A stretch of DNA of 38,095 nucleotides from a virus (Duplodnaviria > Caudoviricetes). A program made the position numbers and the translations under genes. Positions 8,038 through 38,095 of this stretch are shown here, in pieces. The stretch is from positions 1 through 38,095 of IMG/VR virus record IMGVR_UViG_3300042355_001092; one strand, written 5' to 3'. The first letter of the stretch is position 1, and each line of letters opens with the position of its first letter. The notes under the pieces were generated by a model. That model was not told where the DNA came from. It saw only the letters and a list, made by a program, of their open reading frames with translations, and did no database searches.

Positions 8038-10143
8038 ATGGCTCGCATCCCACTAGCAGAAATTCCCAACGCGCCGACCGGCGGCAAACCCGCACTTGCG
8101 AATCCGCAGTTCCCATCTTTTGAAGTAGGGAATCAAGCCATCGCGCAAATCCGCGAAGGCTACCAGTCCAACATGGTGGATGAAAGGGCGGCGGGAGCAA
8201 TGGGTCGCGCCATGCAAAGCGTGGGAGGCGACCTCACGCAAATCGGTTTGGAGGGAATGGATGCGGTGGTTTCCATCTCGCGCATGGCAGAGAAGGAAGC
8301 GACCGGTCAATTCCTCGCCAACCTCACCGAGGTGCAAAGCGAGATGAAAGGTCAGATGGCAGGGGCGGACCCCTCCATGTACCCAGTCATCGTCAAGAAC
8401 ACCTATCGGGACAAGGACGGGAACTTGAATCCGCGCCTTCTGGCGGGAGTCTCGCAATGGGGCATGAAGTATGCCCAAGCAGACGCACTTCGTTCCGAGT
8501 CAAAGGACATGGCGGAATACTCGCTTCAAGCCCACCTCGCCACTCTGGAACAGGACGAGGGACGCAAGCTGGCGGCAATGCAGACTCTGATGACCTCGGG
8601 ACAATTTTCGGATGCCGAGGCGATGAACGAATCCCTCTTTGCAACCCGCCGCATCTCTCCCGACCAGTATGCATCGAACAAGGTCAGTATTGCCGCGAAT
8701 CGAGACAACCAAACTCTATTAGCGTCCATTCAATCCGACCCCGAGGGGATGGCGAAAAAACTCACCACGGCGATGATGGAGGGCAAGCCTATAGACCTTG
8801 TCAAAAACATCTCTCTTGAAAGCTACCCCCGCTACATCAAGGCGGCGGAATACGCCAACACCCTCCAGACCGCCGAAAGACTCACGACTCTCACCGACCT
8901 CATCGACGGCAAATCACTCCTTTCACTCGACGCACTACGCGCCAACCCGATCTTCAAGACGCTCGACCAGGAGAAGCAGTCCGCCCTCACGCGCCGGTTG
9001 ACCAACTCAACGGCGGGAACACCGGCAAGCGAGGTCGCAATCAAAACCTCCTACAACAAACTCGCCTCGTTCCCAAGCACCGACAAACCTTGGGAGGAAT
9101 ACGCCACCTTGGCAACCGAGGCGGCGGCAAATTTGGTGGACCCGTATTTCAGTCCCTTCATGGACAAACTCAACGCACGGGTCGCAGAGATGGCGGAAAA
9201 CGGCGGGGTTCTCGCGCCGAATTCAAAGATCGAAAAGTATGTCGCCGACAAGCTCGACCTGTTTTCGAGCATGGGGATGTTTGGACAGGTTCCAGCAAAG
9301 GAAAGTGGCATGGAGCAGTCTCCCGAGTATGTCCAGCAGACCCTCGCCATCGAGACCCGCAAGATGGAACTCATGCAGGAATTCCGCTCGGCGGGAATTA
9401 AGACGCAAGCGCAAGCCGACGAGTTTTTGAACACGCGCCTCCTACCGGCAGACGCAAAGAATGCGTGGAAAGCCGAGCCAAACACTTTCCAAAAAGTGTG
9501 GCGGTCCATGTTCCCGAGCGCACCGGCAAAACCGGACGGGTCTCCGGTTCCAGCAAAGACTCCTGTGCCGAGGGGAATGGGAATGCCGACCGGCAACGAG
9601 GTTTCCATGTTTGACCCCGATGTCTCCGATCTGACCGGCGGTGCTTACGCTTTCAAAGTTACCGACAAGACTCGGGACGCACTCCCCGCCTCGACTCCTT
9701 CCGCACGGCAAGTCTCCCTCGACTTCAACGATGCGGCATCTCCGACCGCCCGAGGCGTCGAGATTATCATCCCGAACGATGCCACCGAGGAGGAACGGGC
9801 AATCGCGCAAGCGTATGTGGATCGCACCACCGAATGGTTCCGCTCGAAAGGCATCGATGTCCCCAACAGGGGTGTGCGTACAGCAAAAGAAAACGGGCGC
9901 GGGACTCGCGGAAGATTCCACACCGAACCTTTTTTTGTCGCCGACTCGGATGCTCTGGCGGCGGTGCAGAACGATCCCGAGGGCTACGCAAAGGTTCTCG
10001 CCAGCACATTGGGTCGCATCAACGGGGTGACCTTTATTGCACCGCACAAATCCACCGACCCAGGAGCATCTCGCGGCAATGTCAACGAACGAGACTTCGC
10101 CAGACAGGTGATTATTCCCGCCCTTAAAAATCTCGCGACATAA
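8038..10143 (+). CDS. Internal virion protein with C-terminal permuted N-acetylmuramoyl-L-alanine amidase-like domain
   Basis: M.RIP start, helical body, Pro-rich linker, then Amidase_3 motifs in permuted order. Confidence 0.7.
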   Translation: MARIPLAEIPNAPTGGKPALANPQFPSFEVGNQAIAQIREGYQSNMVDERAAGAMGRAMQSVGGDLTQIGLEGMDAVVSISRMAEKEATGQFLANLTEVQSEMKGQMAGADPSMYPVIVKNTYRDKDGNLNPRLLAGVSQWGMKYAQADALRSESKDMAEYSLQAHLATLEQDEGRKLAAMQTLMTSGQFSDAEAMNESLFATRRISPDQYASNKVSIAANRDNQTLLASIQSDPEGMAKKLTTAMMEGKPIDLVKNISLESYPRYIKAAEYANTLQTAERLTTLTDLIDGKSLLSLDALRANPIFKTLDQEKQSALTRRLTNSTAGTPASEVAIKTSYNKLASFPSTDKPWEEYATLATEAAANLVDPYFSPFMDKLNARVAEMAENGGVLAPNSKIEKYVADKLDLFSSMGMFGQVPAKESGMEQSPEYVQQTLAIETRKMELMQEFRSAGIKTQAQADEFLNTRLLPADAKNAWKAEPNTFQKVWRSMFPSAPAKPDGSPVPAKTPVPRGMGMPTGNEVSMFDPDVSDLTGGAYAFKVTDKTRDALPASTPSARQVSLDFNDAASPTARGVEIIIPNDATEEERAIAQAYVDRTTEWFRSKGIDVPNRGVRTAKENGRGTRGRFHTEPFFVADSDALAAVQNDPEGYAKVLASTLGRINGVTFIAPHKSTDPGASRGNVNERDFARQVIIPALKNLAT

Positions 10144-10146
10144 TTC

Positions 10147-13100
10147 ATGGTAACACAAAACGACCTCCTTCCTTCGCCCATGCCCACACCGATCCCGAGG
10201 CAGGACGAGGAGAATCCACTCGGACAAGCAACCCCCGCGCCACTCCCGCCGCCGGTTCCCTCGCCGGTCCCCGCGCCGAGTCCGAAACCACAGGATATGC
10301 CTTTGGATGAGGTCTACGACCGCCGCCGCAATGTTCAGTTCACCGAGACCATCACGGGGCAACCAAACCCGTTTGCCGGTGAACTCGACCGCCAGAAGAC
10401 TTATCGTCAAGAACTCCGCGACTTGAGCGTCATGCTATCCGACCGAGAGACCCTTGGCGGAATCGCGCCCGATGTTGTTGACCTCTCCGAGTCATCTTAC
10501 GATCCGCAACTCTTCAAGGACATGGCGGTCAACTGGAGGGCGACCGCCTTCCTCCTCGACACGCCAGTCGAGCAGTTGAAGGACTCGGACTACACCCTCT
10601 ACAAAAAGTTGGTCGCCGCGAAGCTCGGTAAGAATCCTCCCAAGACCGAGCAGGAATACCACCAGATGCTCGGTGAGCATTTCGGCAAGCAGACCGAAAT
10701 GGACAAAGCAGTCGATGACCTCAACTCGATGGCGGTGATCGATGCCCTCAACTCGACCAACTACGGACAGGATTTTCCGATGGTCCGCGACCAAGGGAGG
10801 TCACTCGCCGCATGGATGGAGAAATACCCCGACCTCGCAACTCCCGACCGGCAATGGTTGCTGGCTCGGAGTGCCGGTGAAATGTATCAGAACACCCTCC
10901 GCGATCTCGCGGATGTCCGCCAATACGCCGCGCCGACTTTCAAAACTCTGGTGGATTTCACCCGAGGCAACGCAACCCCAGAGCAGATCGATGAACTCGG
11001 TCGCAATCTCCGCGACCTCACCCCCGAGCAGTTCACCAAGGTTGGTCAGTATGTGACCCTCGCCGCCGAGACCGAGCAGATCGACCGAGGGGCATGGTCG
11101 CAATTGGCAAAAAACCTCGGGGAATCACTATCCCGAGGGTTCGATTTCATACCACAAGGCGACCTCCAGCTTGGGCAAGCGCAAGCACAGGGGCGATTGG
11201 ATGCGGTCCAGAAGGACGAGGTGTGGGTTCCCGTGGATTCCGAGCGTTTGCCGGTGGGAACCTACCAAGACCCCCGCACCGCACAGGCACTTCCAAAATA
11301 CCTTCAAATGGCGGCATTCGGGGAATCTCCCGACATCGGGCAAGAAGGATCACCGGCATGGCGCAAAGCGACCGGCGAAGAAAAGGAAGCAATCCGCAAA
11401 AACGCCGAGGAGGGAGTAAAAACCATCAACATGGTCCGCAAGCTCCGCAACCTTGCCAAGACCGGCGTGGACCCGATCCGCCCGTTGTCGCAGGGAGGAC
11501 TCATTGGTGCGGTCGAGCGGGGCGCATACGGGCTTGCCGGTAGCATTCCTCTCATGGGTGCGGTTGCCGTCAACCCGTTCCTCGGTGTGCTTGCCTACCA
11601 GTCACAGGAGTTCGACAGGATCATGCTGGAGAACGAAGGCATGGACATCCGAGCCGCACAAGGACTCGCTTTGTTTGAAGGCGGTCTGAACGCCGCAATC
11701 GATGCGTTCCAGATTTCCGCACTCATGGGCAAAGCAAAGATTTTTGGGGGGGTGCTGAAAGGGATGCAGGGGCGCGGGGTCGCGAATTACCTAAAACGGG
11801 CGGGAGTGATCCAACTGGAGCAGTTCACCCAAGAGAACATTCAAGACCTCATCGCGCCGGTCACAGAATACTTCGCCTCGGCACTCCGCGAAGATATGCC
11901 CGACCAGGACTTCGTTGCCGAGATGCGCGAGTATTGGGAGACCCGTCCAGAGGTTTTCTTTGCCGTCCTTCCTCTCGCCCTCATCGGCGGCGGGTTTGCG
12001 TCTTCCTCGGACCTCAAGAACATCACGACCACCATGACCCGCGAACGATTGCGCGGGGCGGGACTCCGCGACGAGAAGATCGACTACATTTTCGCCTCGG
12101 CGGATAAGGCGGAATTCGACGCTCGGTTGCAAGAAGCATGGGGGGCGCGGACCCCCGAGGACATCCAGAGTGGGGTGGACTACCTCAACGAGCAACTCGG
12201 GCAACTCCAGCAGACCAACCTCGACCACAAACTTTCAGTCGATCGCAAAGCAGACGGCACTCCCGAGTGGATCGTCACCGACACGACCGGCGCGGAAGTG
12301 GGACGCTTTGCCGACTACGATGCCGCCGTCGAGGTGGTTTCGCAGAATGTCGCCGCCAACCTTCAGAACGAGAAAGGCACGACCGCCGAACTACTCAACT
12401 TCGCCAGCAAGATTCTACAGAACCCGAGCATCAGCATGGATGAAAAGCCGGTCTCGGTCGCACAGGAGATGGAAAGGATGCAAGGCATCGGCGACGAGAA
12501 GGGTCTCCAGAATCTAATGAACCGGCTCAAATTCGGCGACCTTCAAGGCAAAGACCCGAACAAGTTGTTCATCCTCGGCGAGACCACCATCGAGCAAGTG
12601 AAGGACGGGGTCTATCGGGCAGTCATCAAGCTCAAAGAAAACGCATCGCCCTTGGATGCTCTGGAAGAAATCAACCACGGGTTTTTCAAGACCGCCGTTG
12701 CCAACGGGGTCTACACCTTCGACCAGTACAAGACTTGGTTGGAGCAAACCGAGAAAGCGACCGGCAAGACGCTCAAGCGAGACTCCGAGATGGACATCAT
12801 CGAGTCCCTTTCCCGTGTCACCGAGGACTACATCCTCGGGCGAATCGATGACACATCGATGCCGAAATCCTTTGTCGATTACATCAAGCGCATCGCCCAA
12901 ATCTTCAAGGAGGCGGTGCTTCGCTACCTCAAAATGGAAGAGGCATTCGCGAAAGGCGAGATCGATACCGACTTCAAGACCGCCCTTGAGCAGTCCCTCG
13001 GTATCGACTCACAGGTCCGCCTCGACCGGATTCGCGACGAGACCGCCGCCTCGGTGGACCCGAATCTTTCGGTGCGGGATACCTCGGAGGACCAGGATGA

Positions 13101-16100
13101 TCGAGCGTATGACCCCGCAACAGAATCGGGCGACCCTGCTCCAGATGTCACTCCCGACCAGATCGATCCCGACAAGCAGAAAGGGAAAGAGTGGAAAGAC
13201 ATCCCGTGGACTGACGATTGGAACTATAGCGTCCGAGTCCTTCCCACATCCTTTGTTCCGATGGATGCCAAACTTTTTGCCAAGATCAAAAAGGAATCTG
13301 GTGGGATCATTCGTTCCGTTTTCATCGACCGCATGAAGGCAGGGGGAGAATACCTCGGGATTCCTTTGCAGGGCGGCATGGGATTCCCGACCATCGTGGA
13401 GAATCTCAAAGCCGGTGTGGGATGGGCATTCAATTCAAGGTCAACTGCTCGGGCATTGTACAACCGAGCAATGGATAGTGGTGGATACCTTGCCTTGTCC
13501 ATAATGGTTGAGGGCAATGTTATTGGTAACAAGTCATTTGCCATGATGTGGTTTGAGCAGTTGCGGCAAAACATCGCCGCAGGGAAACTCACAAACGCCA
13601 AAGCACTCGCCGAACTTAACCGAGTGCGTGAAAAGTATGTGACCAAAAAAACGGACGCTACGAGGCATACAGATATTCAGAAAAAAGACAAAAACGGGAA
13701 ACTGAAATTCAACAAGGACGGGTCTCCTGTTTTTGAAAAAGAAAAGATTCAAGCCACCGATGCAGAGGGGAATTTGCTTTTTACCAGAAAAGGAAATCCA
13801 GCATGGGTAAAAACGGACAAGAAATTCACAGGACATTCCACTCCTTGGAAATCACTTGCTGAAGCGGAAAAAGCGATTGTTGGTATGCCTCAAGGCAAAA
13901 GAGGGAGTGCCTATTTCAAAAAGACTTTCAACAAGAAGAAGAATCAAGCGGACTACCAGGAGTTACTTACAAAAACCAACACCAAGGCGGGGTTTCCCGA
14001 TGCCGTGAATATGGTGAAAGATGTCGAGGAACCCTCGTTTGCGGGGCTACCGGCACAAACAATTGTTGGCATCATCAAAATCGAGAAGGTTCCAGAGGGA
14101 ACCGACCCCGCGATGACTGCAAAGCAACTTGGAGTGCCAGAACACAAATCCTACGGATTCATTCTTAAAGGCAAGCCGGTCGCCAGAATGATGAAGTTCC
14201 GCACCCTTGCGGAGGTGAAACCATCCATTGCCAAAGAGATGATGACGCAGGACAACGAGCGTTGGAAAATGGACGATCTCATCGCCTACTCCGTCCGCGA
14301 GACCAAGAAGGACGCCGACGAGATCAAACGAATAGTGTCGAAGATGTCGGCGGACCAGATTCGCACGGCGTTGGAACAAACCAAACTGACCCCGACCCCG
14401 CGCATGGTCGCCATGCTTGGGGAGTTTCCCGAGTATCTGCAACCTATCGTGGAATACATGGTCGCGAAGCGATCCGCCCTAGTGGAGGGCAAGGTCTCGC
14501 CTCGGGATGTGGCAAAAGCCTATTGGATGACCATCGCCAGCATCGGCGCGGATGCGATCAATGTATCCACTATCGCGGCGAAGGCGGCACAACACGGGAT
14601 CGATTTCAACCCATCGCCAATCTTCCTCACGACCGGCGCGGACGGGCAACCACAGATGCGTCCAGAGGAACTCGCCGCCTATTGGCTCGGAACTCCCGAG
14701 GGGCAACGCGCCTTGGACAATGTCGAGAAGGGCAACTTCGATGCCCAGGATTTTGAAAGCGGACTTCTGCTCCGAGACGCTTTTGGAAGGAACGACCTCC
14801 GCGAAAGGTATGTGGTAAGCGGCAAGGCGAAGAAGGGGTCCGAGTTTACCATCGAGGTTGAGGGCAAGGCGGTTGCGGTTGAAGCGACCGACAAAGGCAC
14901 TTGGAGTTTTTCCCTCCCCGCCCTCGACACGCCGGTCACACTTCCCGAGGGAGTCACCGAGGTGCGGCGGACCCACACCTCTGGCGGGGTTGGGATGCCA
15001 AAGCGCAAGAATGTCAACCTCACCAACCTTCTGGAATTCACCAACCGAATCAACGAAAGCAAGGGCGACCCCAAGAAGCTCGAAAAGGCGGTCACCTCGG
15101 CGGTTGGAATTGGCGAGGGTAAGAAGGGATTTATCTCGCACTTCCTTGGATTCGGCGAGTGGTCAACCATCGATGCGGTCGAATTGAACATCTGGCTTGC
15201 CGGTGTGGGAGACACTTCACAGGCAAGCGAGAAGCAGAAGATGATCGCCGCCATTGCCAAGAAGGCATCGGGATCGACGGCGACCAGCAGAGACCTGTTT
15301 GCGCGAATCCGCTCGGCGATCCTCGGGCTACGCACCAAGGCAAAAGGCGGCGACAAAATCCCCGCCGAGGTCGCACCGCACATCATTCACCATTGGATTT
15401 GGGATGCCGCAAAGAACATTCAGACCACCCATGAGGGTCTCTACTATGCGATGCAGAACTACTCTGTCCGCGAGATAACTCCACAACAGGATGCCGACTA
15501 CCTCGCAGCCGTCGAGCGCGGCGACATGGAGACGGCGCAGCGGATGGTGGATGAGGCGGCGAGGGCGGCTGGGTATGGAATTAAAGGCTTCCACGGGACT
15601 CTATCAGAGGAATTGCGAAACAACACTTTTGACGACGAGGACGCTCCCTATCGTGGAGGTCTGGTTGCATTCTTCGCAGAAGATCGAAAGTTTGCAGAAG
15701 AATATGCGAAAAATGGCGGCAAAATAATTGAAGCGCATCTTCGCCTACAAAATCCGTTGGATTTTCGTAACAAGCAATTGATCAAGGAAGCGGTTACTGA
15801 TTTTTATGCACAGACGGGAGGCATTACCGCATCCGAGGATATTCATCGGTTGGAACTTGGAGACGGCAAGGATGTCAATGACGACAACGAGTTTTCTATT
15901 TATCCCGCAGACTTGTTTGAAAAGGCTCTCTTGGAAGGCAGGTGGGATGCGTTTGAGGCTTCCGAGTTTACTGAATGGGTGAACCAGCAGGGACACGATG
16001 GCATCGTGATGAAGGAAAACGACTCCATCACTTTTGCTGTCTACGACCCGACCCAAATCAAATCCGCCGACCCAATCACCCGCGATAAGCAGGGCAATGT

Positions 16101-19100
16101 CATCCCGCTCTCACAGAGGTTCGACCAGACCACGGGGAACATCAACTACTCTGTCCGCGAAACCCCATTCACAAAGCAAAACGCCGTCAAAAATCGGGAA
16201 ATTCTTGCGAAGCGGTTTGAAGGTTTCGCTCCACAAGTGGGAGTCTCGGGTCTTCAGTATGGATGGCAACGACCGAGTGACGGGAAGTTCATTAGGGTCA
16301 GTCAGCACTACTATTTTTGGCGGACTGACGATGGCGAAATCCTCGGCGACCCGAATGGAGTTGGCTACCTTCGCATTGCCAAATCGGGCAATGTTCTCAT
16401 GTACCAAGGGGACGCAAACCCGAGGCAACTAAAAGAACTCAAAGACACGGCGATTGAAGAGGGGTTGGAACTCTTGCGCGATCCTTCCGAAACTTCCTAC
16501 AGCATCCGCGACCAGGAGGAGATCGACCGAGTCGCCGCCGAACTCGACAAGGTGAATCGCGGACCCGAGGGGCGGTTGGCGGTCTACCAGAGGGCGAAGG
16601 CGAGGTTCCTGCAACTCATGCAGGACAACAAGGCGGCACTCGATGCTATCAAGAGTGCGGCGGTTACCGACCCTGCACCGGCAATTGAAAAGCTGGAAGA
16701 AGATCGCGCCGGTCGCCTCGCCGACATAGAGACCGAGCAGATCGCCGAGGTGGAAAGTGCGCTACAGGACAACGCCGTCCAGTTCGCCACCCGCATCGAT
16801 GAGGCAATCGATCCCGAGGACAAGGCACAACTGAAATCGGACGCAAGGGATCGAGCGAAGATTTTGGAAAAGGGAATCCGCGAGAAGTATTCCGAGCGGA
16901 AAAAACTGGTCGAGCAGGAGATCGCCGCCGAGAAGCGCAAAGTCTCCGAGGTCTCCGAGTCGCGCCGTGTCGCATCCAATGCGGTCTACAGGGAGAGGGT
17001 GAAATACGAGAAACTCGCCCAAGCAGTCGCCGAACTTGACGGGTTGCTCAAGGTGCTTCCCAAAGAAGTCATCGGCAAGGTTGGCGGGTTCGCGACACTC
17101 GCCAACATAGGGACCGGCGAGAAGGCACTTGCCGACTTCTTCGTAAAACGAGTCGAGATGGTGGACGCTCAATTGGAGAGATACCTCAACAAAGAATACG
17201 ACCAGGAACTCGACAAAATCTTTGAACGCGCCAAACCGAAAAAAGCCAAGGCGGGAGAAAAGCCCAAAGGCATCGGCGCGGAAATCCAGAACCTCTTTGC
17301 GATCTTGAAAGAGGCGCGTGATTTTAATGCGCGAGAGGTGTCTGCACACCTCGCAGGCATAGATGACAAACTTGCGACCGGAGAACTCACCGCCGAGGAG
17401 GAGGCGGCACTCAAGCAAGAGGCGGCACTCGTCACTTTGGTGGGCAACTGGAAACCGAAATACCAAGGCTACACCGACCCAACCACCGGCAAGACCGGAT
17501 ACACAAAAGTGGACAACGGCGCGGACTCCAACCGCCGCGCCGCCGCCGTAGAGGCACTCCGAGAAACATGGGCGCGTGGATTCGCCGAGTATCGGGCGCG
17601 GGAAATTGCCAAACGCCAGCAACGCGAAGCGGACCAGCAAGAGGCGATCCTTTCGACCGGCAAGAAGGGCGACATCAACAAGCGAAAAGAAAAGCAACTG
17701 GCGGATGCCGGTCTCGGAGCAAAGTTCCGCAACGCACTTTTCAACCTTGTGTCATGGGACCAATTCACCGGCTTGCTTTTCGGCAACAACTCGGCGGTCG
17801 CGAATCGAGTTTCGGACCTGCAACGCCGAGCCGACAACCAGAAGGAGGATGCGATCCAGATCAAAACCGAGGCAATCGAATCCCTGTTCACGCGCCTCGC
17901 CGGTGGCAAGCGTCTGGACGGCGAAAAACTCCGTTGGGAAATGTCGCAGATGAGCATGAAGGTCGATGGTCTTCCCCTCTCCGAATTGGAGGGACTCACC
18001 GCCACAATGATGTGGATGCAAGCGGACGGGAAGCGGCACATGGAGGGACGCTTTGACGAGAACGGCAACCGCACCTCGGCATGGGGCTACACGCAAGCAT
18101 TCATAGACAAGATTGAAGGTGCTTTGAGTAACGAGGCGAAAGAGGTTCGCCAGTTCCTTCTCGACAACTACGACCGAGAGTACCAACGGATCAACGCCGT
18201 TTACCGGCAACTGAACGGCATCGATCTCCCGAGGATTCAGTTTTACTCGCCTCTGCTTGTTGCGCCACAGAACGCGCCACAGGGAATGATCAACGATCCT
18301 GTCACCGGCAATGCCATCTCGGCGGCATCAACATCCCCAGGAGCATTGAGGACTCGCGGCAATGCAATCGCCGAGCCGCAATTCCGAGACGCACTCCAGA
18401 CCTTCATCGCACATACCAAACAGATGGAGCATTGGATGGCATACGCGCCAATCCTCGCCGAGGTCAACGGGGTACTCCGCAATCGCGAGGTGCAGAGTGC
18501 CATCGAAGAAAAGGGCGGCATCGAGGCAAAGAAAGTTCTGAACCTTTGGCTCGATCTTTTCGCTCAAGGCGGAAACAGGGATGCCAGCAACCAACTCGAC
18601 CTGTCACAGCAGATCACCGGCATGGCGGGGCGAGGGGCGCAAATGGCACTCGTTGGTCGCCTCGGGACTTTGCTCATCCAATCGACACAACTCGGCGCGG
18701 CAATCGCCGAGATGCCCACAGGGTCATATGTGGTGCGACTCTCAAAACTTCTCACCGGCAACCTTGGATGGGGAGAGGCACTCAACTCACCCTATGTGCA
18801 ACGCCGCATTCGCGAGATGCCGCCGGTTGTCCAACAAGCATTGGAGGGACTCGCCGCCACACAACCGAACCGCCTCAAGTACGAGGTGGCGCGGATCGGG
18901 CGACTCATTTCGGGGGCAGATGGTTTGATGACCGCCGGTACTTTCGCCATCGTTTTTGATTACCACTTCGCGCAAGCAAAGAAGATGGGATTCGGCGAAG
19001 CAGACGCTCGGGCGTATGCGCGGAATGTTGCCGAACGCGCCACCGACCGAATCGCGCAACCGACCCGCATGGGTGCAAGGTCCATCTTTGAACTGACCCA

Positions 19101-19656
19101 AACCAACGCATACGCGAAAGTGGGATGGGCATTCGCTTCCGAGGCGCGGAAAAACCTCGCCCTTGCCGCATATGGGGTCGCCAATCGACCGGCGGGAGAT
19201 GCCGCCAGAACCATCGGCGGATTGATTGTCCTCAACATTCTTTTCGGGTCATTGATCCGCAACGCATGGCGGGACGCTCGGGACGAGGAAGACGATGAGT
19301 GGTTCGATGACCGCAACTGGTCAGGCAAGCGACTGCTCCTTTCCGCTTTTACCGAACCTTTCTACGGATTGCCGTTCATCGGAGCGGCAATCGAGGAAGG
19401 CGCGTATGCCGCCGCCGGTGAATACAACATGGCGGGAAATGTCCTGTCTCCCGTCCGAGCGATCCGCGCCTTGCGGAACCTGCCCGAGACCTTGAGCGGA
19501 GAACGCGAAATCGAAGACATGATGAAAGACCTCAACGGACTCATGTGGGTCATGGGTCTTTTCAACCAAAACATCGCCGCCGCAACCTCGCTTTCCAACA
19601 TTGCCGTGGACGCTTTTAGCCTCGGCAAGAACACCCAAAAAGAACTTGAAGAATAA
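10147..19656 (+). CDS. Giant polyvalent internal virion/ejection protein (3169 aa) with zincin-like, HhH-glycosylase-like and ART-PolyVal-like modules
   Basis: Single long ORF in the last-ejection-protein slot before the tail fibre. The ART motif set is clear; modules are separated by YS(V/I)R repeats. Confidence 0.85.
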   Translation: MVTQNDLLPSPMPTPIPRQDEENPLGQATPAPLPPPVPSPVPAPSPKPQDMPLDEVYDRRRNVQFTETITGQPNPFAGELDRQKTYRQELRDLSVMLSDRETLGGIAPDVVDLSESSYDPQLFKDMAVNWRATAFLLDTPVEQLKDSDYTLYKKLVAAKLGKNPPKTEQEYHQMLGEHFGKQTEMDKAVDDLNSMAVIDALNSTNYGQDFPMVRDQGRSLAAWMEKYPDLATPDRQWLLARSAGEMYQNTLRDLADVRQYAAPTFKTLVDFTRGNATPEQIDELGRNLRDLTPEQFTKVGQYVTLAAETEQIDRGAWSQLAKNLGESLSRGFDFIPQGDLQLGQAQAQGRLDAVQKDEVWVPVDSERLPVGTYQDPRTAQALPKYLQMAAFGESPDIGQEGSPAWRKATGEEKEAIRKNAEEGVKTINMVRKLRNLAKTGVDPIRPLSQGGLIGAVERGAYGLAGSIPLMGAVAVNPFLGVLAYQSQEFDRIMLENEGMDIRAAQGLALFEGGLNAAIDAFQISALMGKAKIFGGVLKGMQGRGVANYLKRAGVIQLEQFTQENIQDLIAPVTEYFASALREDMPDQDFVAEMREYWETRPEVFFAVLPLALIGGGFASSSDLKNITTTMTRERLRGAGLRDEKIDYIFASADKAEFDARLQEAWGARTPEDIQSGVDYLNEQLGQLQQTNLDHKLSVDRKADGTPEWIVTDTTGAEVGRFADYDAAVEVVSQNVAANLQNEKGTTAELLNFASKILQNPSISMDEKPVSVAQEMERMQGIGDEKGLQNLMNRLKFGDLQGKDPNKLFILGETTIEQVKDGVYRAVIKLKENASPLDALEEINHGFFKTAVANGVYTFDQYKTWLEQTEKATGKTLKRDSEMDIIESLSRVTEDYILGRIDDTSMPKSFVDYIKRIAQIFKEAVLRYLKMEEAFAKGEIDTDFKTALEQSLGIDSQVRLDRIRDETAASVDPNLSVRDTSEDQDDRAYDPATESGDPAPDVTPDQIDPDKQKGKEWKDIPWTDDWNYSVRVLPTSFVPMDAKLFAKIKKESGGIIRSVFIDRMKAGGEYLGIPLQGGMGFPTIVENLKAGVGWAFNSRSTARALYNRAMDSGGYLALSIMVEGNVIGNKSFAMMWFEQLRQNIAAGKLTNAKALAELNRVREKYVTKKTDATRHTDIQKKDKNGKLKFNKDGSPVFEKEKIQATDAEGNLLFTRKGNPAWVKTDKKFTGHSTPWKSLAEAEKAIVGMPQGKRGSAYFKKTFNKKKNQADYQELLTKTNTKAGFPDAVNMVKDVEEPSFAGLPAQTIVGIIKIEKVPEGTDPAMTAKQLGVPEHKSYGFILKGKPVARMMKFRTLAEVKPSIAKEMMTQDNERWKMDDLIAYSVRETKKDADEIKRIVSKMSADQIRTALEQTKLTPTPRMVAMLGEFPEYLQPIVEYMVAKRSALVEGKVSPRDVAKAYWMTIASIGADAINVSTIAAKAAQHGIDFNPSPIFLTTGADGQPQMRPEELAAYWLGTPEGQRALDNVEKGNFDAQDFESGLLLRDAFGRNDLRERYVVSGKAKKGSEFTIEVEGKAVAVEATDKGTWSFSLPALDTPVTLPEGVTEVRRTHTSGGVGMPKRKNVNLTNLLEFTNRINESKGDPKKLEKAVTSAVGIGEGKKGFISHFLGFGEWSTIDAVELNIWLAGVGDTSQASEKQKMIAAIAKKASGSTATSRDLFARIRSAILGLRTKAKGGDKIPAEVAPHIIHHWIWDAAKNIQTTHEGLYYAMQNYSVREITPQQDADYLAAVERGDMETAQRMVDEAARAAGYGIKGFHGTLSEELRNNTFDDEDAPYRGGLVAFFAEDRKFAEEYAKNGGKIIEAHLRLQNPLDFRNKQLIKEAVTDFYAQTGGITASEDIHRLELGDGKDVNDDNEFSIYPADLFEKALLEGRWDAFEASEFTEWVNQQGHDGIVMKENDSITFAVYDPTQIKSADPITRDKQGNVIPLSQRFDQTTGNINYSVRETPFTKQNAVKNREILAKRFEGFAPQVGVSGLQYGWQRPSDGKFIRVSQHYYFWRTDDGEILGDPNGVGYLRIAKSGNVLMYQGDANPRQLKELKDTAIEEGLELLRDPSETSYSIRDQEEIDRVAAELDKVNRGPEGRLAVYQRAKARFLQLMQDNKAALDAIKSAAVTDPAPAIEKLEEDRAGRLADIETEQIAEVESALQDNAVQFATRIDEAIDPEDKAQLKSDARDRAKILEKGIREKYSERKKLVEQEIAAEKRKVSEVSESRRVASNAVYRERVKYEKLAQAVAELDGLLKVLPKEVIGKVGGFATLANIGTGEKALADFFVKRVEMVDAQLERYLNKEYDQELDKIFERAKPKKAKAGEKPKGIGAEIQNLFAILKEARDFNAREVSAHLAGIDDKLATGELTAEEEAALKQEAALVTLVGNWKPKYQGYTDPTTGKTGYTKVDNGADSNRRAAAVEALRETWARGFAEYRAREIAKRQQREADQQEAILSTGKKGDINKRKEKQLADAGLGAKFRNALFNLVSWDQFTGLLFGNNSAVANRVSDLQRRADNQKEDAIQIKTEAIESLFTRLAGGKRLDGEKLRWEMSQMSMKVDGLPLSELEGLTATMMWMQADGKRHMEGRFDENGNRTSAWGYTQAFIDKIEGALSNEAKEVRQFLLDNYDREYQRINAVYRQLNGIDLPRIQFYSPLLVAPQNAPQGMINDPVTGNAISAASTSPGALRTRGNAIAEPQFRDALQTFIAHTKQMEHWMAYAPILAEVNGVLRNREVQSAIEEKGGIEAKKVLNLWLDLFAQGGNRDASNQLDLSQQITGMAGRGAQMALVGRLGTLLIQSTQLGAAIAEMPTGSYVVRLSKLLTGNLGWGEALNSPYVQRRIREMPPVVQQALEGLAATQPNRLKYEVARIGRLISGADGLMTAGTFAIVFDYHFAQAKKMGFGEADARAYARNVAERATDRIAQPTRMGARSIFELTQTNAYAKVGWAFASEARKNLALAAYGVANRPAGDAARTIGGLIVLNILFGSLIRNAWRDARDEEDDEWFDDRNWSGKRLLLSAFTEPFYGLPFIGAAIEEGAYAAAGEYNMAGNVLSPVRAIRALRNLPETLSGEREIEDMMKDLNGLMWVMGLFNQNIAAATSLSNIAVDAFSLGKNTQKELEE

Positions 19657-19692: not shown

Positions 19693-19706
19693 GGTGTACG
19701 CACACC
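19693..19706. promoter_or_regulatory. Operator-like palindrome GGTGT-N4-ACACC upstream of the tail fibre gene
   Basis: GGTGTACGCACACC, 5 nt before ATG 19712, identical to 2600-2613. Confidence 0.7.
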
Positions 19707-19711
19707 CACTA

Positions 19712-21910
19712 ATGGCAGTCGCGACCACCACTTCCACGATCTCTTACACCGGAACCAACACGGGCAACCAGTCATGCCCGATTCCGTTTATATTCTACAA
19801 CGAGACAGACATCGTTGTTGAACTGATACCCGCTACGGGAACCGCATCAACACTCGTGCTGAACACCAACTATGTTCTGACAGGAACCGGCAATCCCTCG
19901 GGCGGAACGGCGGTGATTGTGTCGCCTGTGCCGGTGACTACGAAGATCGTCATTTCGCGGAGCGTCCCTGCCACTCAAGAGACTTCGTTTCAGACCGGCG
20001 ACCGATTCCCCGCCTCGGTGATGGAACGCGCCCTCGACAAACTCACGATGCTCGTCCAGCAGTTCCTCCGCGCAAGCAACCGGACCCTTCGTTTCGGACC
20101 CGCATCTCCCGAGCAAGCAGAACTAGCTCCAATTCCTCTATCCGGTCAATATGTCCTTGGCGTTTCACAAGGAAACCTTGGGTGGCAAACCCCGCCAACT
20201 GTTGTGCTAGCAGACGGGGCGGTCACTAACGCCAAAATCGCCGATGGCGCGATCACCTCGGCGAAGATCGCGGCGGGAGTCAGTCTTGTTCCCGATGGGT
20301 CCATCACTAACATAAAACTCGCGCCCAACTCGGTCACCTCGGCGAACATTGCACCAGGCACAATCGTGGACACCGATGTCGCCGATAACTCGGTGACCGA
20401 TGCAAAGCTATCCAACTCGGGCGCGACTGCTGGATCATACCCGCTTTCGACCGACATCAATCGCATTCCGAGGCTAACCATCAACACCAAAGGGCGCGTG
20501 ACCGCCGCCACAACAGATGAGGTTCGTCAATATGTGAGGGTTGAATCCTTCGCCGATGCTAATACCGGTGAAGTGGGATACCAGCCATTCCTTAACGGGT
20601 CTATTTTTCTCGACTCAAAAGGCAATCTCCGAGCCGCAGGGGTCAACACAAGTTCCCGCATGGGCGTGGGAGTTGACAACCTTGCGACCAATGGACCCTG
20701 CTTTGTCACCATTCCCTTTGCGCCAACCGATGCCGGTGAGGTGATCAGTAAATTTTGGGTCACCGAGAACAATATATTTGTGCTTTCCAGCACCGGCAAA
20801 CTCTATGGGTGCGGAGTAAATGGCAGAGGGCAATTAGGAGTTGGGGATGTGCTGGCAAGGAGTGTGCTGACTCGGATTGGCACTCTGGCAAGCATTGTTG
20901 ATTTTTCAGTCTCTCAAGCATCGGCGGATGACACGATTCATTGCCTCGCCGTGACTAGCTCCGGTCAATTGTGGGCATGGGGATACAATGGCTATGGGGG
21001 ACTCGGGAACGGAAACACCACACAACAAAACTCACCCGTTCAAATCACGACCAATTTGAGCGGCAGAACAATTTCTAAATGCTATGCATTCGGCGGCGAA
21101 GCGGCATTCAGTTTTATCATCGATTCGACCGGTGATGTCTTTTCTTCTGGATACAACGGATTCGGTCAACTCGGTCTTGGAGACAACACCAACCGCAACA
21201 CTTTTACTCAAGTCCCCACCCTCAAAGGGGATCGCATCTACGGAGTTGGGGGAGTAAATGCCGCCGTTAACGCATATAGGCGAGGGTCTGTATTCATTGT
21301 GCGAAATGGCTCGGTGTGGGCAACCGGAAGCAATGTTGCTGGAACTCTCGGATACGGGGACACCACCGACAAAAACGGATTTGTCCAGTTGTCGATTAGT
21401 AATGTCGTGTCGATTGCGGCAAGTTGCGAATATGCCGCGAATGGTAGTGGCGTTTGCGCCCTGCTTTCAAACGGGTCGATTCGCGTGTGGGGCAACAATA
21501 GTGCTGGCATGATCGGCATGGGCGCGGCGGCGAGTCAATTGACCCCTGTGCAACCGAGTGAAACCACCGGCATCACTTTTTCCAAAGCGCAATTCATCGG
21601 GTCTCAAAATACTGGCGGCAACCTCGCTTTGCTGGATACCTCGGGGCGCATTTGGGTGACCGGTTACAGAGGCAGAATTCTTGGTCAAGGAGGGGCAATA
21701 GGAGTTGACCAACTTACTCTTCAACGGGTCAGAGCATCTGGCGTTTCCTTTAACGATTTCCGCATCTACGGAGTTGGAGGAGCAACCGGACCAACCATTC
21801 TTGCCAAAACCACGACCGGAGAACTTTGGGCGTGGGGCAACAACAGTAATTTCCAATGCGGTATCGGCGCAGGGGCAAACATTTCCGTTCCGCAACTGAT
21901 TACAATATGA
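19712..21910 (+). CDS. Tail fibre: T7-type N-terminal anchor, DGAVT.AKIA repeats, C-terminal RCC1/BLIP-II-like beta-propeller
   Basis: F.F....DI.V and ERALDKLTM..QQ anchor motifs; repeated GxLWAWGxNxxGQLGxG units. Confidence 0.85.
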   Translation: MAVATTTSTISYTGTNTGNQSCPIPFIFYNETDIVVELIPATGTASTLVLNTNYVLTGTGNPSGGTAVIVSPVPVTTKIVISRSVPATQETSFQTGDRFPASVMERALDKLTMLVQQFLRASNRTLRFGPASPEQAELAPIPLSGQYVLGVSQGNLGWQTPPTVVLADGAVTNAKIADGAITSAKIAAGVSLVPDGSITNIKLAPNSVTSANIAPGTIVDTDVADNSVTDAKLSNSGATAGSYPLSTDINRIPRLTINTKGRVTAATTDEVRQYVRVESFADANTGEVGYQPFLNGSIFLDSKGNLRAAGVNTSSRMGVGVDNLATNGPCFVTIPFAPTDAGEVISKFWVTENNIFVLSSTGKLYGCGVNGRGQLGVGDVLARSVLTRIGTLASIVDFSVSQASADDTIHCLAVTSSGQLWAWGYNGYGGLGNGNTTQQNSPVQITTNLSGRTISKCYAFGGEAAFSFIIDSTGDVFSSGYNGFGQLGLGDNTNRNTFTQVPTLKGDRIYGVGGVNAAVNAYRRGSVFIVRNGSVWATGSNVAGTLGYGDTTDKNGFVQLSISNVVSIAASCEYAANGSGVCALLSNGSIRVWGNNSAGMIGMGAAASQLTPVQPSETTGITFSKAQFIGSQNTGGNLALLDTSGRIWVTGYRGRILGQGGAIGVDQLTLQRVRASGVSFNDFRIYGVGGATGPTILAKTTTGELWAWGNNSNFQCGIGAGANISVPQLITI

Positions 21911-25153: not shown

Positions 25154-26164
25154 ATGAGTACCCTCCCCAAGTACCGACTGCTCTCCCCAAAATTCGACAA
25201 CGGCAAAGACCGGTGGGTGGTGGACATTCCTCGGTCCCTCCACGGGAAAAGATCGCGAAGATTTTTCCGCACCGAGGCGGAAGCACTCCGCGCCTCGGGC
25301 GAGATCGCCATCGCCCATTCCCTTGGGGGCGACATGACCGGCAAACGGCGCGGAGACACGCTACGAGACTATGCCGCCGAGTTTCTCGCCGAGAAAAAAT
25401 CGGATGTGAAGAAGGACACATACCGGCAACTCGCATGGGGAACGGCGTTGCTGGTCGAGCGATTCGGGGGGATCGCGCCGGTCGAGCTTACCGAGCAGAT
25501 CGCCCGACGATGGATCGACACGCTCGATCTCTCCACCCGTGGGAAGTTCAATGTCTTCGCCGTCTGCAAATCCTTTTACCGGTGGCACGGCATTCGGGGC
25601 GTTTGCCGCGACAATCCTTTTTACTCCGCACCGGCACGGGAGGACGAGGACTACAGGGTCGCGATCCTCACTCCCGAGCAGATGGCACTCCTGCTCAAAG
25701 CGGAGTTCCCTCAATGGTTCCGCACCTACCTTGTGTGCGGCGGGTTCGCCGGTCTCCGCACCATCGAAATGATTCGCATGGGTCACTCGGCGGTGGATTG
25801 GCAGTATAACGAAATCTTGGTCCGCAAAGCGGACGCAAAACAGGGAGAGGCGGCGAGACCTCGGAGTGTTCACATTCTCCCTGCTTTCGAGCGGCACATG
25901 ATCCGAGACGCATCGGGACTGCTTCTGGAGGGCTACACCGAGAAACGAATGAGGAAGTGCCTGGGCATCGCTTGCAAAATTTTGAAGGTGGACCGGTGGC
26001 TCAAGAACTCTCTCCGACACTCATTCGCAAGCTACCACCTCGCGCATTTTCGCGATGCCGCGAAGACCGCATTTGAACTCGGGCATGAGTCGCCGAAACT
26101 GCTCTACAAAACCTACGCGAATCTCGTCTCCCGCCGTGATGCGGAAAAGTGGTGGAACCTGTAG
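25154..26164 (+). CDS. int: Tyrosine integrase
   Basis: AGLR..E, K, N.LRHSFASYH, LGH and catalytic Y (KTYAN); N-terminal arm-binding beta domain. Confidence 0.95.
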   Translation: MSTLPKYRLLSPKFDNGKDRWVVDIPRSLHGKRSRRFFRTEAEALRASGEIAIAHSLGGDMTGKRRGDTLRDYAAEFLAEKKSDVKKDTYRQLAWGTALLVERFGGIAPVELTEQIARRWIDTLDLSTRGKFNVFAVCKSFYRWHGIRGVCRDNPFYSAPAREDEDYRVAILTPEQMALLLKAEFPQWFRTYLVCGGFAGLRTIEMIRMGHSAVDWQYNEILVRKADAKQGEAARPRSVHILPAFERHMIRDASGLLLEGYTEKRMRKCLGIACKILKVDRWLKNSLRHSFASYHLAHFRDAAKTAFELGHESPKLLYKTYANLVSRRDAEKWWNL

Positions 26165-28230: not shown

Positions 28231-28935
28231 ATGACACCTAACGAAAATCAACTCGCAGTCAAGCCGCAACAAAAAGCATCCGCACTCGCCCTCATGGCAA
28301 GCCGGTTGTCCGTTGACCCAACTAAACTCCTCGACACGCTCAAAGCAACAGTCTTCAAGGGCGCGTCGAACGAGGAACTCCTCGCACTCGTCGCCGTGTC
28401 GAACCGCTACGGACTCGACCCCCTCACCAAGCAAATCTATGCGTTCCCGAGCAAGGGCGGGATCACGCCGGTTGTCTCGGTTGACGGGTGGTTGCACATC
28501 CTCAACACGCAACCCCAATTTGACGGGGTGGAGTTCATCTACACCGACGATTCCGATGGCAACCCGCACTCGGTCACGGCGGTCATCCACCGCAAGGACC
28601 GCCAGCACCCGACCAAAGTCACCGAGTATTTCTCGGAGTGCGCGAGGAACACCGAACCTTGGAAGCAGTTCCCGAGGCGGATGCTTCGCCACAAGGTGGT
28701 GAAGGAGGCGGTGCGTGTCGCATTCGGAATCTCGGGCGTGACCGACGAGGATGAGGCGCGGGACATTGCAAAGAACGCAATCGTCGCCGAGCCGGTCGCG
28801 CCGGTCGCCGCGAAGCCGATTTTCCGCAAGAAGAAGGTCGAGGAAATCGCCGCCGAGGTTTCAGTAACCTCCGACATTGCGCCAGAGGTTTCAGTAACCG
28901 CCGTGGAACTCAACCTTGAGGAGGACAGCAAGTGA
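28231..28935 (+). CDS. bet: Single-strand annealing recombinase, Bet/RecT family
   Basis: YGLDPLTKQIYAFP..GGI.PVVSVDGW, EY.SEC and PW.QFP.RMLRHK motifs. Confidence 0.9.
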   Translation: MTPNENQLAVKPQQKASALALMASRLSVDPTKLLDTLKATVFKGASNEELLALVAVSNRYGLDPLTKQIYAFPSKGGITPVVSVDGWLHILNTQPQFDGVEFIYTDDSDGNPHSVTAVIHRKDRQHPTKVTEYFSECARNTEPWKQFPRRMLRHKVVKEAVRVAFGISGVTDEDEARDIAKNAIVAEPVAPVAAKPIFRKKKVEEIAAEVSVTSDIAPEVSVTAVELNLEEDSK

Positions 28936-30014
28936 TCACTCCCGACATCCAATTCCCCGCATCGCAGGATCGCGGCGACAAACCCTCCTGCTCCTCCTTT
29001 GGTCGCTACTCGCTTTGTGCGGGTAGCTTCCAGATCGGACTCTTGGTCCCTCGCGATGAGGGAGGACCGGAGGCACAACTCGGAACGGATGTTCACCTTG
29101 CCCTCTCGGGGGCAAAGGTCGAACTCACCGAGGAAGGAGAGGGAATCTACAACTTGTGCCGGTATCACCTCGAAAAATTGCAGGACGAGGTGATCGGCAA
29201 AGAGGTCACATTCCAATCCTTGGTCGAGCAGAGACTCTGGTGGAAGGGCGAGTGGTCCGGTCAAGCGGACCGAATTGACATCTTTGAGGATGCCGCCCTT
29301 GTCATCGATTACAAAACCGGTCGCGGCGAAGTGACCCCCGCTGACCGCAATATGCAGTTGCGTGGACTCGCGGTGCTGGTCAAACGCCGGTTCCCGACCC
29401 TCAAGAAAATCTATGTGGCGATCATCGCGCCTCGGAGCATCGGGACCACCCTTGCCTGTTACGACGAGGAAGGTCTCGCCGCCGCCACCGAGGAGGTTCT
29501 GGAACTGGTCTCCGAGATCAGCAAAGAACACGCGCCTCGCACTCCCGCGCCTAGTGCTTGCAAATATTGCCCTGCGAAATCGGTTTGTCCCGAGGTTGCC
29601 GAAAAGGCACTCACCCTTCCCGATTCACCCGCGCCGACCACCCTAACTTCCGAGAAACTCTCCGAGTTGCTGGTGATCGCCGAGTATGTCGAGGACTACA
29701 TCATGGCGATCCGCATGGAGGCGAAGTCTCGCCTCGCGCTAGGTGTGCCGCTCAAAGGTTGGTACATGAAAGACGGCGCGAAGAAACGCGCCATCGAGAA
29801 CCCCACCGCCGCCTACAACATTCTCGCCGACAAAATGTCGCCCGAGGATTTCGCGGGGGCTTGTTCGGTTTCGGTCACCAGTCTGGAAAAGGCATACGCG
29901 AAATCCACCGGCTTAAAAGGCAAGGCGGCGAAGGAGGCGTTTGATTCAGAACTCGCGCCGGTCATCACCACCAAGCAGAACGCATCCTCACTCACTCGGG
30001 AGGTCGCACAATGA
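28932..30014 (+). CDS. PD-(D/E)XK exonuclease, DUF2800/Cas4-like
   Basis: C.GS, GT..H, EQR, G.AD, IDYKTG, N.QL and CKYCPAK..CP motifs. Confidence 0.85.
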   Translation: MITPDIQFPASQDRGDKPSCSSFGRYSLCAGSFQIGLLVPRDEGGPEAQLGTDVHLALSGAKVELTEEGEGIYNLCRYHLEKLQDEVIGKEVTFQSLVEQRLWWKGEWSGQADRIDIFEDAALVIDYKTGRGEVTPADRNMQLRGLAVLVKRRFPTLKKIYVAIIAPRSIGTTLACYDEEGLAAATEEVLELVSEISKEHAPRTPAPSACKYCPAKSVCPEVAEKALTLPDSPAPTTLTSEKLSELLVIAEYVEDYIMAIRMEAKSRLALGVPLKGWYMKDGAKKRAIENPTAAYNILADKMSPEDFAGACSVSVTSLEKAYAKSTGLKGKAAKEAFDSELAPVITTKQNASSLTREVAQ

Positions 30015-37347: not shown

Positions 37348-38095
37348 CACTCCCACACTAGAAAAGTACGAGAAGACCGGCGGGTCCGAGGAACTGGCGA
37401 AAGCTATCCTCTCCCGCTATTCCCGTTTGGAGCAGGATCGCGCCTACTGGATGTCGATGTGGCAATCCATTTCCGATCTGGTGATGCCGCGCAAAAGTTA
37501 CATCCTCACCCAACAAATCTCGCCGACCACCGACAAGGAACAACGACTCTTCGACTCCACCGCCGTCCGCGCCAACATGGTGCTTGCCGCCGGTTGCATG
37601 AGTTACATCACACCGGCGGATTCGCGTTGGTGCAGTTTTGAAGCACCGGAAGGGATCGAGGACGGCGAGGGTGTGCAGGAGTATTTTGCCGAGGTCACCG
37701 AGGCGGTGCTGGAGGCACTTTCCCGATCCAACTTCCACTCGGCGATCCATGAACTTTACCTCGACCGAGGATGTTTCGGAACGGCGGTTATCTTCGCCGA
37801 GGCGGGGGAAACCACTCCAATCATCTTTCGCAACATCGATGTCGGCACATTCGTTCTCTCGGAGAACCATGAGGGAGTGGTGGACACTTGCTTCCGCAAG
37901 TTTGAGATGACCGCCCGTCAGATCGTGGAGGAATTCGGAATCGAGAATGTCTCCGACCAAATCAAGAAGTGCTACGAGGAGCAGAAGAACCTCGACCAGA
38001 AATTTGAAATCCTCCACGGGGTCTATCCCCGCTCGGAGAAGGAACGGAACCCCAAGAAACTCGACGGGAAAAACAAACCCTTCGCCAGTTGCTAC
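37337..38095 (+). CDS. Portal protein, N-terminal part (continues at the window start)
   Basis: Hand translation gives R...W...W..I.D..MP, FDSTA, W, SNF...IHE.YLD...FGTA and G.VDT..R.F.MTARQIV.EFG; open to the end of the window. Confidence 0.9.
   Translation, partial: MPTPTPTLEKYEKTGGSEELAKAILSRYSRLEQDRAYWMSMWQSISDLVMPRKSYILTQQISPTTDKEQRLFDSTAVRANMVLAAGCMSYITPADSRWCSFEAPEGIEDGEGVQEYFAEVTEAVLEALSRSNFHSAIHELYLDRGCFGTAVIFAEAGETTPIIFRNIDVGTFVLSENHEGVVDTCFRKFEMTARQIVEEFGIENVSDQIKKCYEEQKNLDQKFEILHGVYPRSEKERNPKKLDGKNKPFASCY
37921..38095. repeat. Terminal direct repeat / circular assembly overlap, copy 2
   Basis: Matches 1-175 with one mismatch. Confidence 0.97.

Follow-up and report, generated by a model that had tools for sequence, protein, structure and literature searches.

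Phage polyvalent proteins have been defined as a class, and their autoproteolysis by an embedded MPTase domain has been predicted (Iyer 2017, PMC5512222). Here we analyze a giant protein of this kind that is encoded in the 38-kb virus record IMGVR_UViG_3300042355_001092, which is rated complete; this whole stretch of 38,095 nucleotides (nt) is called the window. The open reading frame (ORF) for the giant, 3169 amino acids (aa) long, contains a repeated short peptide of the form YS[VI]R, and we consider it well supported that this tag is a boundary signal at every module joint of the protein. The tag is also a candidate cut site for the protein's own zincin-like domain, a prediction of self-cleavage to which we give an even chance of being correct.

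In architecture, the giant belongs with the polyvalent proteins. Like the proteins described in PMC5512222, it joins unrelated enzymes (ART-PolyVal and an OGG2-like fold) and an embedded zincin-like domain in one large protein, it is encoded in a phage virion module (with portal, capsid, tail tube, internal virion protein, and fiber around it), and its architecture varies among homologs (here 50 module clusters in 75 proteins). Supplements aside, that account names no junction or cleavage motif, and the metal sites it describes are HExxH and HExxxH, with the EExxH and RDxxQ sites found here not among them. The position of the gene, downstream of those for tail tube A/B and an internal virion protein, and the HTVC010P-like capsid protein also recall T7-like ejection proteins (gp14/15/16; cyanopodophage A4 gp26-29), which carry peptidoglycan hydrolases and, in the account given there, no swappable tagged cargo (PMC12002296). 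In crAss-like phages, the gp65-66-67 fusion is a virion polyprotein for which processing by a zincin has been proposed; its cargo is an RNA polymerase, and no repeated site figures in that account (bioRxiv 2020.03.07.982082).

If it cleaves itself, the giant is comparable with eukaryotic RNA virus polyproteins in having one ORF, an embedded protease, and a repeated short recognition site, but it belongs to a double-stranded DNA phage, its protease would be of the metalloprotease type, its modules are swapped between genomes at the site, and its cutting is only predicted. Polymorphic toxin cassette systems likewise exchange effector modules in frame by recombination, but these have one C-terminal toxin, whereas the giant has several internal modules and a conserved element that is a four-residue peptide rather than long DNA homology; no immunity genes were seen for it, although no search was aimed at them. 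A literature search that left most subscription papers outside found no description of such junction tags and no paper containing the word EExxH. The junction code is apparently undescribed.

Tag and modules of the giant protein

The motif YS[VI]R occurs five times in the 3169-aa ORF, whereas 4883 of 5000 shuffled sequences contained no copy, 117 contained one, and none contained more; translation of the window in all six frames reveals no further copy. A first-pass annotation, made from the letters alone, had listed six motifs, NLSVR among them, and all six are where it placed them (Table 1). The 17-mer that it reported at two junctions, AACTACTCTGTCCGCGA, was likewise located at 15457 and 16144, and the related stretch CTACTCCGTCCGCGAGA at 14286. 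The segments between tags measure 53/354/391/229/117 aa, in agreement with the proposed module lengths. The remark that parts of the modules are AT-richer than the flanks held for three of the four, the GC content being 0.476 in module A, 0.514 in the ADP-ribosyltransferase (ART) module, and 0.513 in module D, compared with 0.584 in the N-terminal block and 0.576 in the C-terminal block; it failed for the glycosylase-like module (0.582).

Contigs of other runs that match with 0 differing letters span five junctions (bridging contigs X2 at 12462-13236, 15193-15506, and 15978-17500; X3 at 13851-14342; X5 at 12833-13680), which shows that the layout is not a mis-assembly. Together with the shuffles and the 100-fold enrichment of the tag among homologs reported below, these contigs refute a chance motif or a chimeric assembly, in favor of which nothing was found and to which we leave almost no probability.

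To the structural model of aa 1345-2158 (mean predicted local distance difference test score, pLDDT, 77), the glycosylase module contributes a helix-hairpin-helix (HhH) fold at aa 1420-1766 that resembles archaeal OGG2 (3knt, Z 14.0, root mean square deviation (rmsd) 3.3, 199 of 205 residues aligned; a further match to archaeal OGG2, Z 13.4), so that the earlier guess of an HhH-like domain is supported. K275 and D292 of this module are nearly invariant in 17 rows, and we take both to have a catalytic role. A beta-rich insert in the glycosylase fold, at ∼14800-14980, is absent from some homologs and matches a calcium-stabilized adhesin repeat weakly. The assignment of the next module to the ARTs was borne out by a match to ART-PolyVal at aa 1812-1975 and by an ART fold at aa 1786-1975 (Z about 7). 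A Foldseek search with the model returned in its second row the anti-CRISPR protein 6kyf (E 0.13, probability 0.98), presumably the ART AcrIF11; the top row, a cyanophage A4 pre-ejectosome chain (E 0.014, rmsd 26; model of window 14179-16620), was not confirmed on a second comparison and is probably spurious. The model places the folded glycosylase and ART between tags, as expected if the motifs lie at domain borders, and tags 3, 5, and 6 are within or bordering stretches of pLDDT <50. Module A has no match in Pfam, NCBIfam, PDB, or ESM Atlas, no distant homologs of module D were found, and the C-terminal scaffold has no Pfam or NCBIfam match and no sequence match to T7-like ejection proteins beyond a weak one to a Vibrio phage.

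Table 1. Positions in the window of the giant ORF, its tags and modules, and the annealing and exonuclease genes
Feature	Positions	Strand	Remarks
Giant virion-module ORF, polyvalent protein	10147..19656	+	3169 aa; after tail tube and internal-virion-protein genes
Conserved N-terminal block	10147..13062	+	aa 1-972; swapped as a whole block among relatives
Zincin-like domain	12454..13026	+	aa ~770-960; helix, sheet, EEINH helix (aa 840-844), Glu886 helix; from model, weak zincin matches
EEINH metal-site motif	12664..12678	+	in relatives HExxH, xExx[ED], or RDxxQ
Tag 1, NLSVR	13063..13077	+	aa 973; degenerate; opens disordered acidic spacer
Acidic spacer	13078..13221	+	48 aa
Tag 2, NYSVR	13222..13236	+	aa 1026
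Module A (cluster M5)	13237..14283	+	~350 aa; GC 0.476; without family or structure match
Tag 3, AYSVR	14284..14298	+	aa 1380; swap point in L003, L007, and run X8
Module B (M10)	14299..15456	+	HhH DNA-glycosylase fold resembling archaeal OGG2, with beta-domain insert; one Lys and one Asp almost invariant
Tag 4, NYSVR, with first 17-mer copy	15457..15473	+	aa 1771; swap point in L002 and X8
Module C (M3)	15472..16143	+	ART-PolyVal ADP-ribosyltransferase within conserved DADY...IPLSQRF clamp
Tag 5, NYSVR, with second 17-mer copy	16144..16160	+	aa 2000
Module D (M18)	16159..16494	+	~113 aa; without assigned function, poorly modeled
Tag 6, SYSIR	16495..16509	+	aa 2117; start of conserved C-terminal scaffold
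Conserved C-terminal scaffold	16510..19656	+	~1050 aa
RecT/Bet-like annealing protein and exonuclease	28231..30014	+	candidate machinery for module swaps

Module exchange and the nature of the tag

A search with the C-terminal scaffold gave 275 matches, 120 of which were listed; the 75 listed proteins that had both anchors were analyzed. In these 75 homologs, [YF]S[IV][RKGA] occurs 263 times in the 59.7 thousand amino acids (kaa) of the middle region and 6 times in the 142 kaa of the flanks, so that the tag is ∼100-fold enriched in the variable middle, and YSI was the top 3-mer found de novo. Several homology-defined junctions that lacked the motif read [YF]A[IV][RK] instead, from which we write the tag as [YF][SA][IV]x; some distant members contain few or no such tags.

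The homolog alignment showed that swap breakpoints cluster on the tag, as the first-pass annotation had anticipated, and that module order varies. Protein alignments end ≤10 aa from a tag in 98 of 167 cases and start there in 57 of 134 (7.7% of positions in the null), and DNA alignments start ≤30 nt from a tag in 68 of 120 cases and end there in 38 of 109 (null 10%), counts that are not independent events, as a shared tag draws alignments a few residues in and the proteins are related. Splitting at tags yields 209 modules in 50 clusters with many neighbor orders, while 5 of the 75 proteins gave no module. Close relatives keep both ends and differ in the middle at tags: ART and module D are replaced in L002, the glycosylase module is absent and other modules are added in L003, and the replacement runs from module A onward in L007. 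A strain of run X8 has contigs that match from 14293 up to 15473 and then again from 16494, and each of these three positions falls at a tag. A form lacking the ART module between the 17-mers was not found among the contigs of 8 runs, which drop rare variants and cannot show absence. Precomputed Pfam annotations place LPD, GNAT, and ParB families in the homologs.

Some exchanges have a finer structure. At L003:7907-7945, the crossover seems to fall within a shared Asp-Ala-Asp stretch ∼20 nt past tag 3, so that the module begins as a hybrid. In homologs P0014-P0075, 32 of the 209 tag-bounded segments are shorter than 60 aa, some of only 8-11 aa, and these double tags resemble swap remnants. The clamp around the ART module (DADYLAAV...GD and IPLSQRF; window 15490-15580 and 16050-16140) encloses interiors of 102-413 aa, and 107 of 181 clamps begin with an ART-like xHG motif. 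A depth spike marks the clamp/ART DNA as common to many unrelated contigs, a second, inner level of swapping.

Whether the tag is kept as a peptide or as a DNA site can be read from its codons, which were surveyed in 82 distinct ORFs with DNA among 121 found. The serine codons at 225 tag sites are near background (TCC 87, AGC 77, TCG 30, TCA 16, TCT 10, AGT 5), and both TCN and AGY codons occur in 33 of the 59 genes that have at least two sites. Over 198 distinct sites, TCN:AGY is 129:69, with third positions resembling background; the tag sites were chosen by protein pattern, which does not force the AGY class. Even the orthologous tag of the C-terminal scaffold uses TCC, TCT, or AGC. A conserved DNA recombination site at each border, as in integron-like cassettes, was not found, as silent sites vary and both TCN and AGY are used. 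Based on these results, the tag is conserved as protein, not as DNA.

This silent-site divergence already largely refutes the proposal that the tag is a mere footprint of DNA recombination, in which short repeats were duplicated or homogenized at cassette insertion and have no function as protein. That proposal draws on the repeated 17-mer, which is one of the 8 of 333 within-gene pairs that share at least 17 nt (0.1% simulated), on a within-gene silent-site identity of 0.487 compared with 0.399 expected, on linker tails such as PVSTDTN that are shared before the tags of unrelated modules, and on the presence of RecT and exonuclease genes. The mean shared tract is 6.2 nt, compared with 5.2 nt simulated, and, weighing these points with the codon data, we rate the footprint proposal as highly improbable. 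The modest excess of silent identity, the long shared tracts, and the DNA alignments that end near tags lead us to read the data as recombination that at times uses tag DNA while selection acts on the peptide. The earlier idea of a recombination handle therefore survives as a side effect only: long identical tracts are in slight excess, but silent sites vary like background.

The flavor of the tag follows the lineage, being YS[IV][RK], [YF]SI[GA], FS[VI][IL], or FSL[GA]. Depending on the lineage, modules M1, M3, M5, M11, and M12 are bounded by R/K or by G/A tags, which shows that the same module takes the tag flavor of its carrier lineage. Giants on other scaffolds were reached with the ART module, which matched 2,471 giants; 120 were listed, 119 of them new and 101 of these without the scaffold studied here. 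In the 77 scoreable giants of unrelated scaffold among these listed matches, the two flanks of the ART are mutually alike (16.6, compared with 10.7 for flanks of different proteins; the best of 10,000 permutations was 12.0 and none reached 16.6), and private tags such as RFQP, RYMP, YHPG, FSRE, FMARE, and EQAA are found.

These private tags bear on the proposal that the tag is cut in trans by a host enzyme or by another phage protein. Such a protease would explain why tags stay intact in the giants whose metal site reads RDxxQ (see below), but the very different tags of other-scaffold giants (RFQP, RYMP, FMARE, YHPG, EQAA) are more easily explained by a phage reader that evolves along with them than by conserved host proteases. 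In addition, other virion proteins show no enrichment of the tag, and a phrog "protease" match at 1598-2521 lacks HExxH and resembles a scaffold protein; we regard cutting in trans as improbable. The near-background density of the tag in other virion proteins (0-0.3 per kaa) also rules out a prohead-protease site.

The zincin-like domain as candidate reader

The zincin-like domain, which is likely the reader of the tag, was overlooked in the first-pass annotation. An AlphaFold2 model of aa 700-990 (pLDDT 83.8) has zincin topology (helix 784-796, a short strand, strands 811-819 and 822-829, and helices 835-852 and 881-896, in protein numbering). EEINH lies on the motif helix and Glu886 on a helix further along, and the disordered tail starts with tag 1. 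Foldseek with this model found nothing in PDB and, in BFVD, only uncharacterized phage giants, and a hidden Markov model search of PDB with the domain found nothing. Among 150 such domains, 61 have EExxH, 31 HExxH, 29 RxxxQ, and 27 xExx[ED]; Glu886, at the downstream third-ligand position, is kept in 150 of 150 and the general-base Glu in 122 of 150. A tag follows within 60 aa of the domain in 52 of 58 EExxH and 23 of 29 HExxH proteins, and the first tag is kept in 21 of 24 RxxxQ proteins.

Self-cleavage is the best reading because the zincin-like domain ends just before the first tag. From its gene position, the giant would be packaged as an ejection protein and ejected into the host, where, probably after ejection, the zincin-like domain would recognize [YF][SA][IV]x and cut. 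Zincins commonly want a hydrophobic P1' residue, and the bond cut would most simply be [YF]-[SA] | [IV] for that reason. The freed products would be the glycosylase-fold enzyme, the ART, and two modules without assigned function, which, judging from the folds, may act on host DNA or proteins. Swaps, whose points are seen in the alignments, would be made by the phage RecT and exonuclease on short homology at or near a tag, and selection would keep only products in which modules are still bounded by tags.

Several observations weigh against self-cleavage. The window's own metal site, EEINH, is not the canonical HExxH; structural matches of the domain are weak (VIA best, Z 4.6), the longest alignments being to the zincins PPEP-2 (126 residues) and PPEP-3 (120); and the site is xExx[ED] in 26 of 138 homologs. 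Tag 4 sits in a short coil of pLDDT ∼82 that immediately follows the glycosylase's final helix. When the private-tag test was repeated on the glycosylase module, the start of which is hard to place, the effect was weak, though significant (12.9 vs. 11.7, n = 117), and tag flavor follows the zincin tree and the C-scaffold tree equally, with 14 changes each. In 24 of 138 de-duplicated homologs, the site is RDxxQ, and these form a monophyletic old clade (24/24, support 100). Their tag density is 4.88 per kaa compared with 4.64, and 77 of 94 homology-defined junctions carry intact tags compared with 165 of 208. No second zincin of this family was found near the RDxxQ genes within the flanks examined, where other protease types are possible. 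Finally, N4 vRNAP, which has an MPTase, is packaged uncut according to PMC5512222.

That the RDxxQ clade keeps its tags is what lowers self-cleavage to about an even chance and raises the proposal that the tag is a docking peptide, bound by the zincin-fold domain (often as a pseudo-enzyme) or by the helical scaffold to stack, package, or thread cargo in assembly and ejection while the protein stays whole. Within the clade, identity falls to 43% and the ratio of nonsynonymous to synonymous divergence (dN/dS) is about 0.1-0.4, indicating purifying selection on the domain, although dS is near saturation for distant pairs. Docking is also in line with a metal site that drifts among HExxH, EExxH, xExx[ED], and RDxxQ with only Glu886 invariant, with the substituted zincin sites reported in PMC3650047, and with the account in PMC5512222 that the MPTase region of N4 vRNAP is needed for encapsidation. 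Against it stand the general-base Glu, retained in most of the domains as counted above, and the little that unrelated enzymes such as a glycosylase and an ART would gain by staying joined. Moreover, RDxxQ N-terminal blocks are freely recombined with the scaffolds and modules that EExxH phages carry; they are dispersed among 84 leaves of the C-scaffold tree, and so the clade and EExxH phages draw on a common gene pool, from which its tags could be renewed. We judge docking unlikely, but a serious contender.

The RDxxQ members include L093, L026, L023, L044, L035, L073, L075, L079, L080, and L082. Polar residues around their lost metal site are conserved, and their N-terminal block is swapped whole onto different C-terminal scaffolds.

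As a tentative proposal, more doubtful than self-cleavage, giant ejection proteins may share a lineage-private peptide code, in which the four-residue tag of each scaffold is read by its own zincin-fold domain and a captured enzyme that gains the tag becomes deliverable cargo. The RDxxQ clade would then read the code without a canonical metal site, by new catalytic chemistry or by pure docking.

Phage, host, and significance

The genome is a circularly assembled, apparently complete podophage of 37.9 kb, with a 175-nt terminal direct repeat (99%) at 1-175 and 37921-38095. Its gene order is T7-like (portal, capsid, tail tube A/B, internal virion protein, 701-aa ORF, 3169-aa ORF, tail fiber), its capsid protein is nearest to those of HTVC010P-type pelagiphages (33-37%), and RecT, exonuclease, and integrase-like genes are also in the window. 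The C-terminal end of the 701-aa ORF upstream of the giant (8038-10143) weakly matches amidase/endolysin, as expected of a middle ejection protein. The tail fiber (19694-21910) bears an RCC1-like propeller, and the integrase-like gene lies at 25154-26164.

Homologs of the giant protein are present in Terrimicrobium genomes, on large contigs, and 10 of 11 genome matches carry the label Verrucomicrobia. From these matches, the host is probably a member of the phylum Verrucomicrobia, and the large Terrimicrobium contigs, together with the integrase-like gene, suggest a temperate group. The best-matching sequencing runs, from which alone the habitat was drawn (runs with small word shares were excluded), are lake and freshwater metagenomes.

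Self-processing of polyvalent proteins was predicted in 2017 with no site named in the literature searched; here, exact candidate bonds and a candidate enzyme are at hand, and the RDxxQ and EExxH N-terminal blocks on the same scaffolds provide a natural negative control. If cleavage is true, the zincin and the tag would constitute a sequence-specific protease with its tag. The tags also split dark sequence into domains automatically, giving 50 module families, most of them without a Pfam name, and this set is a list of likely early-infection anti-host or anti-defense proteins.

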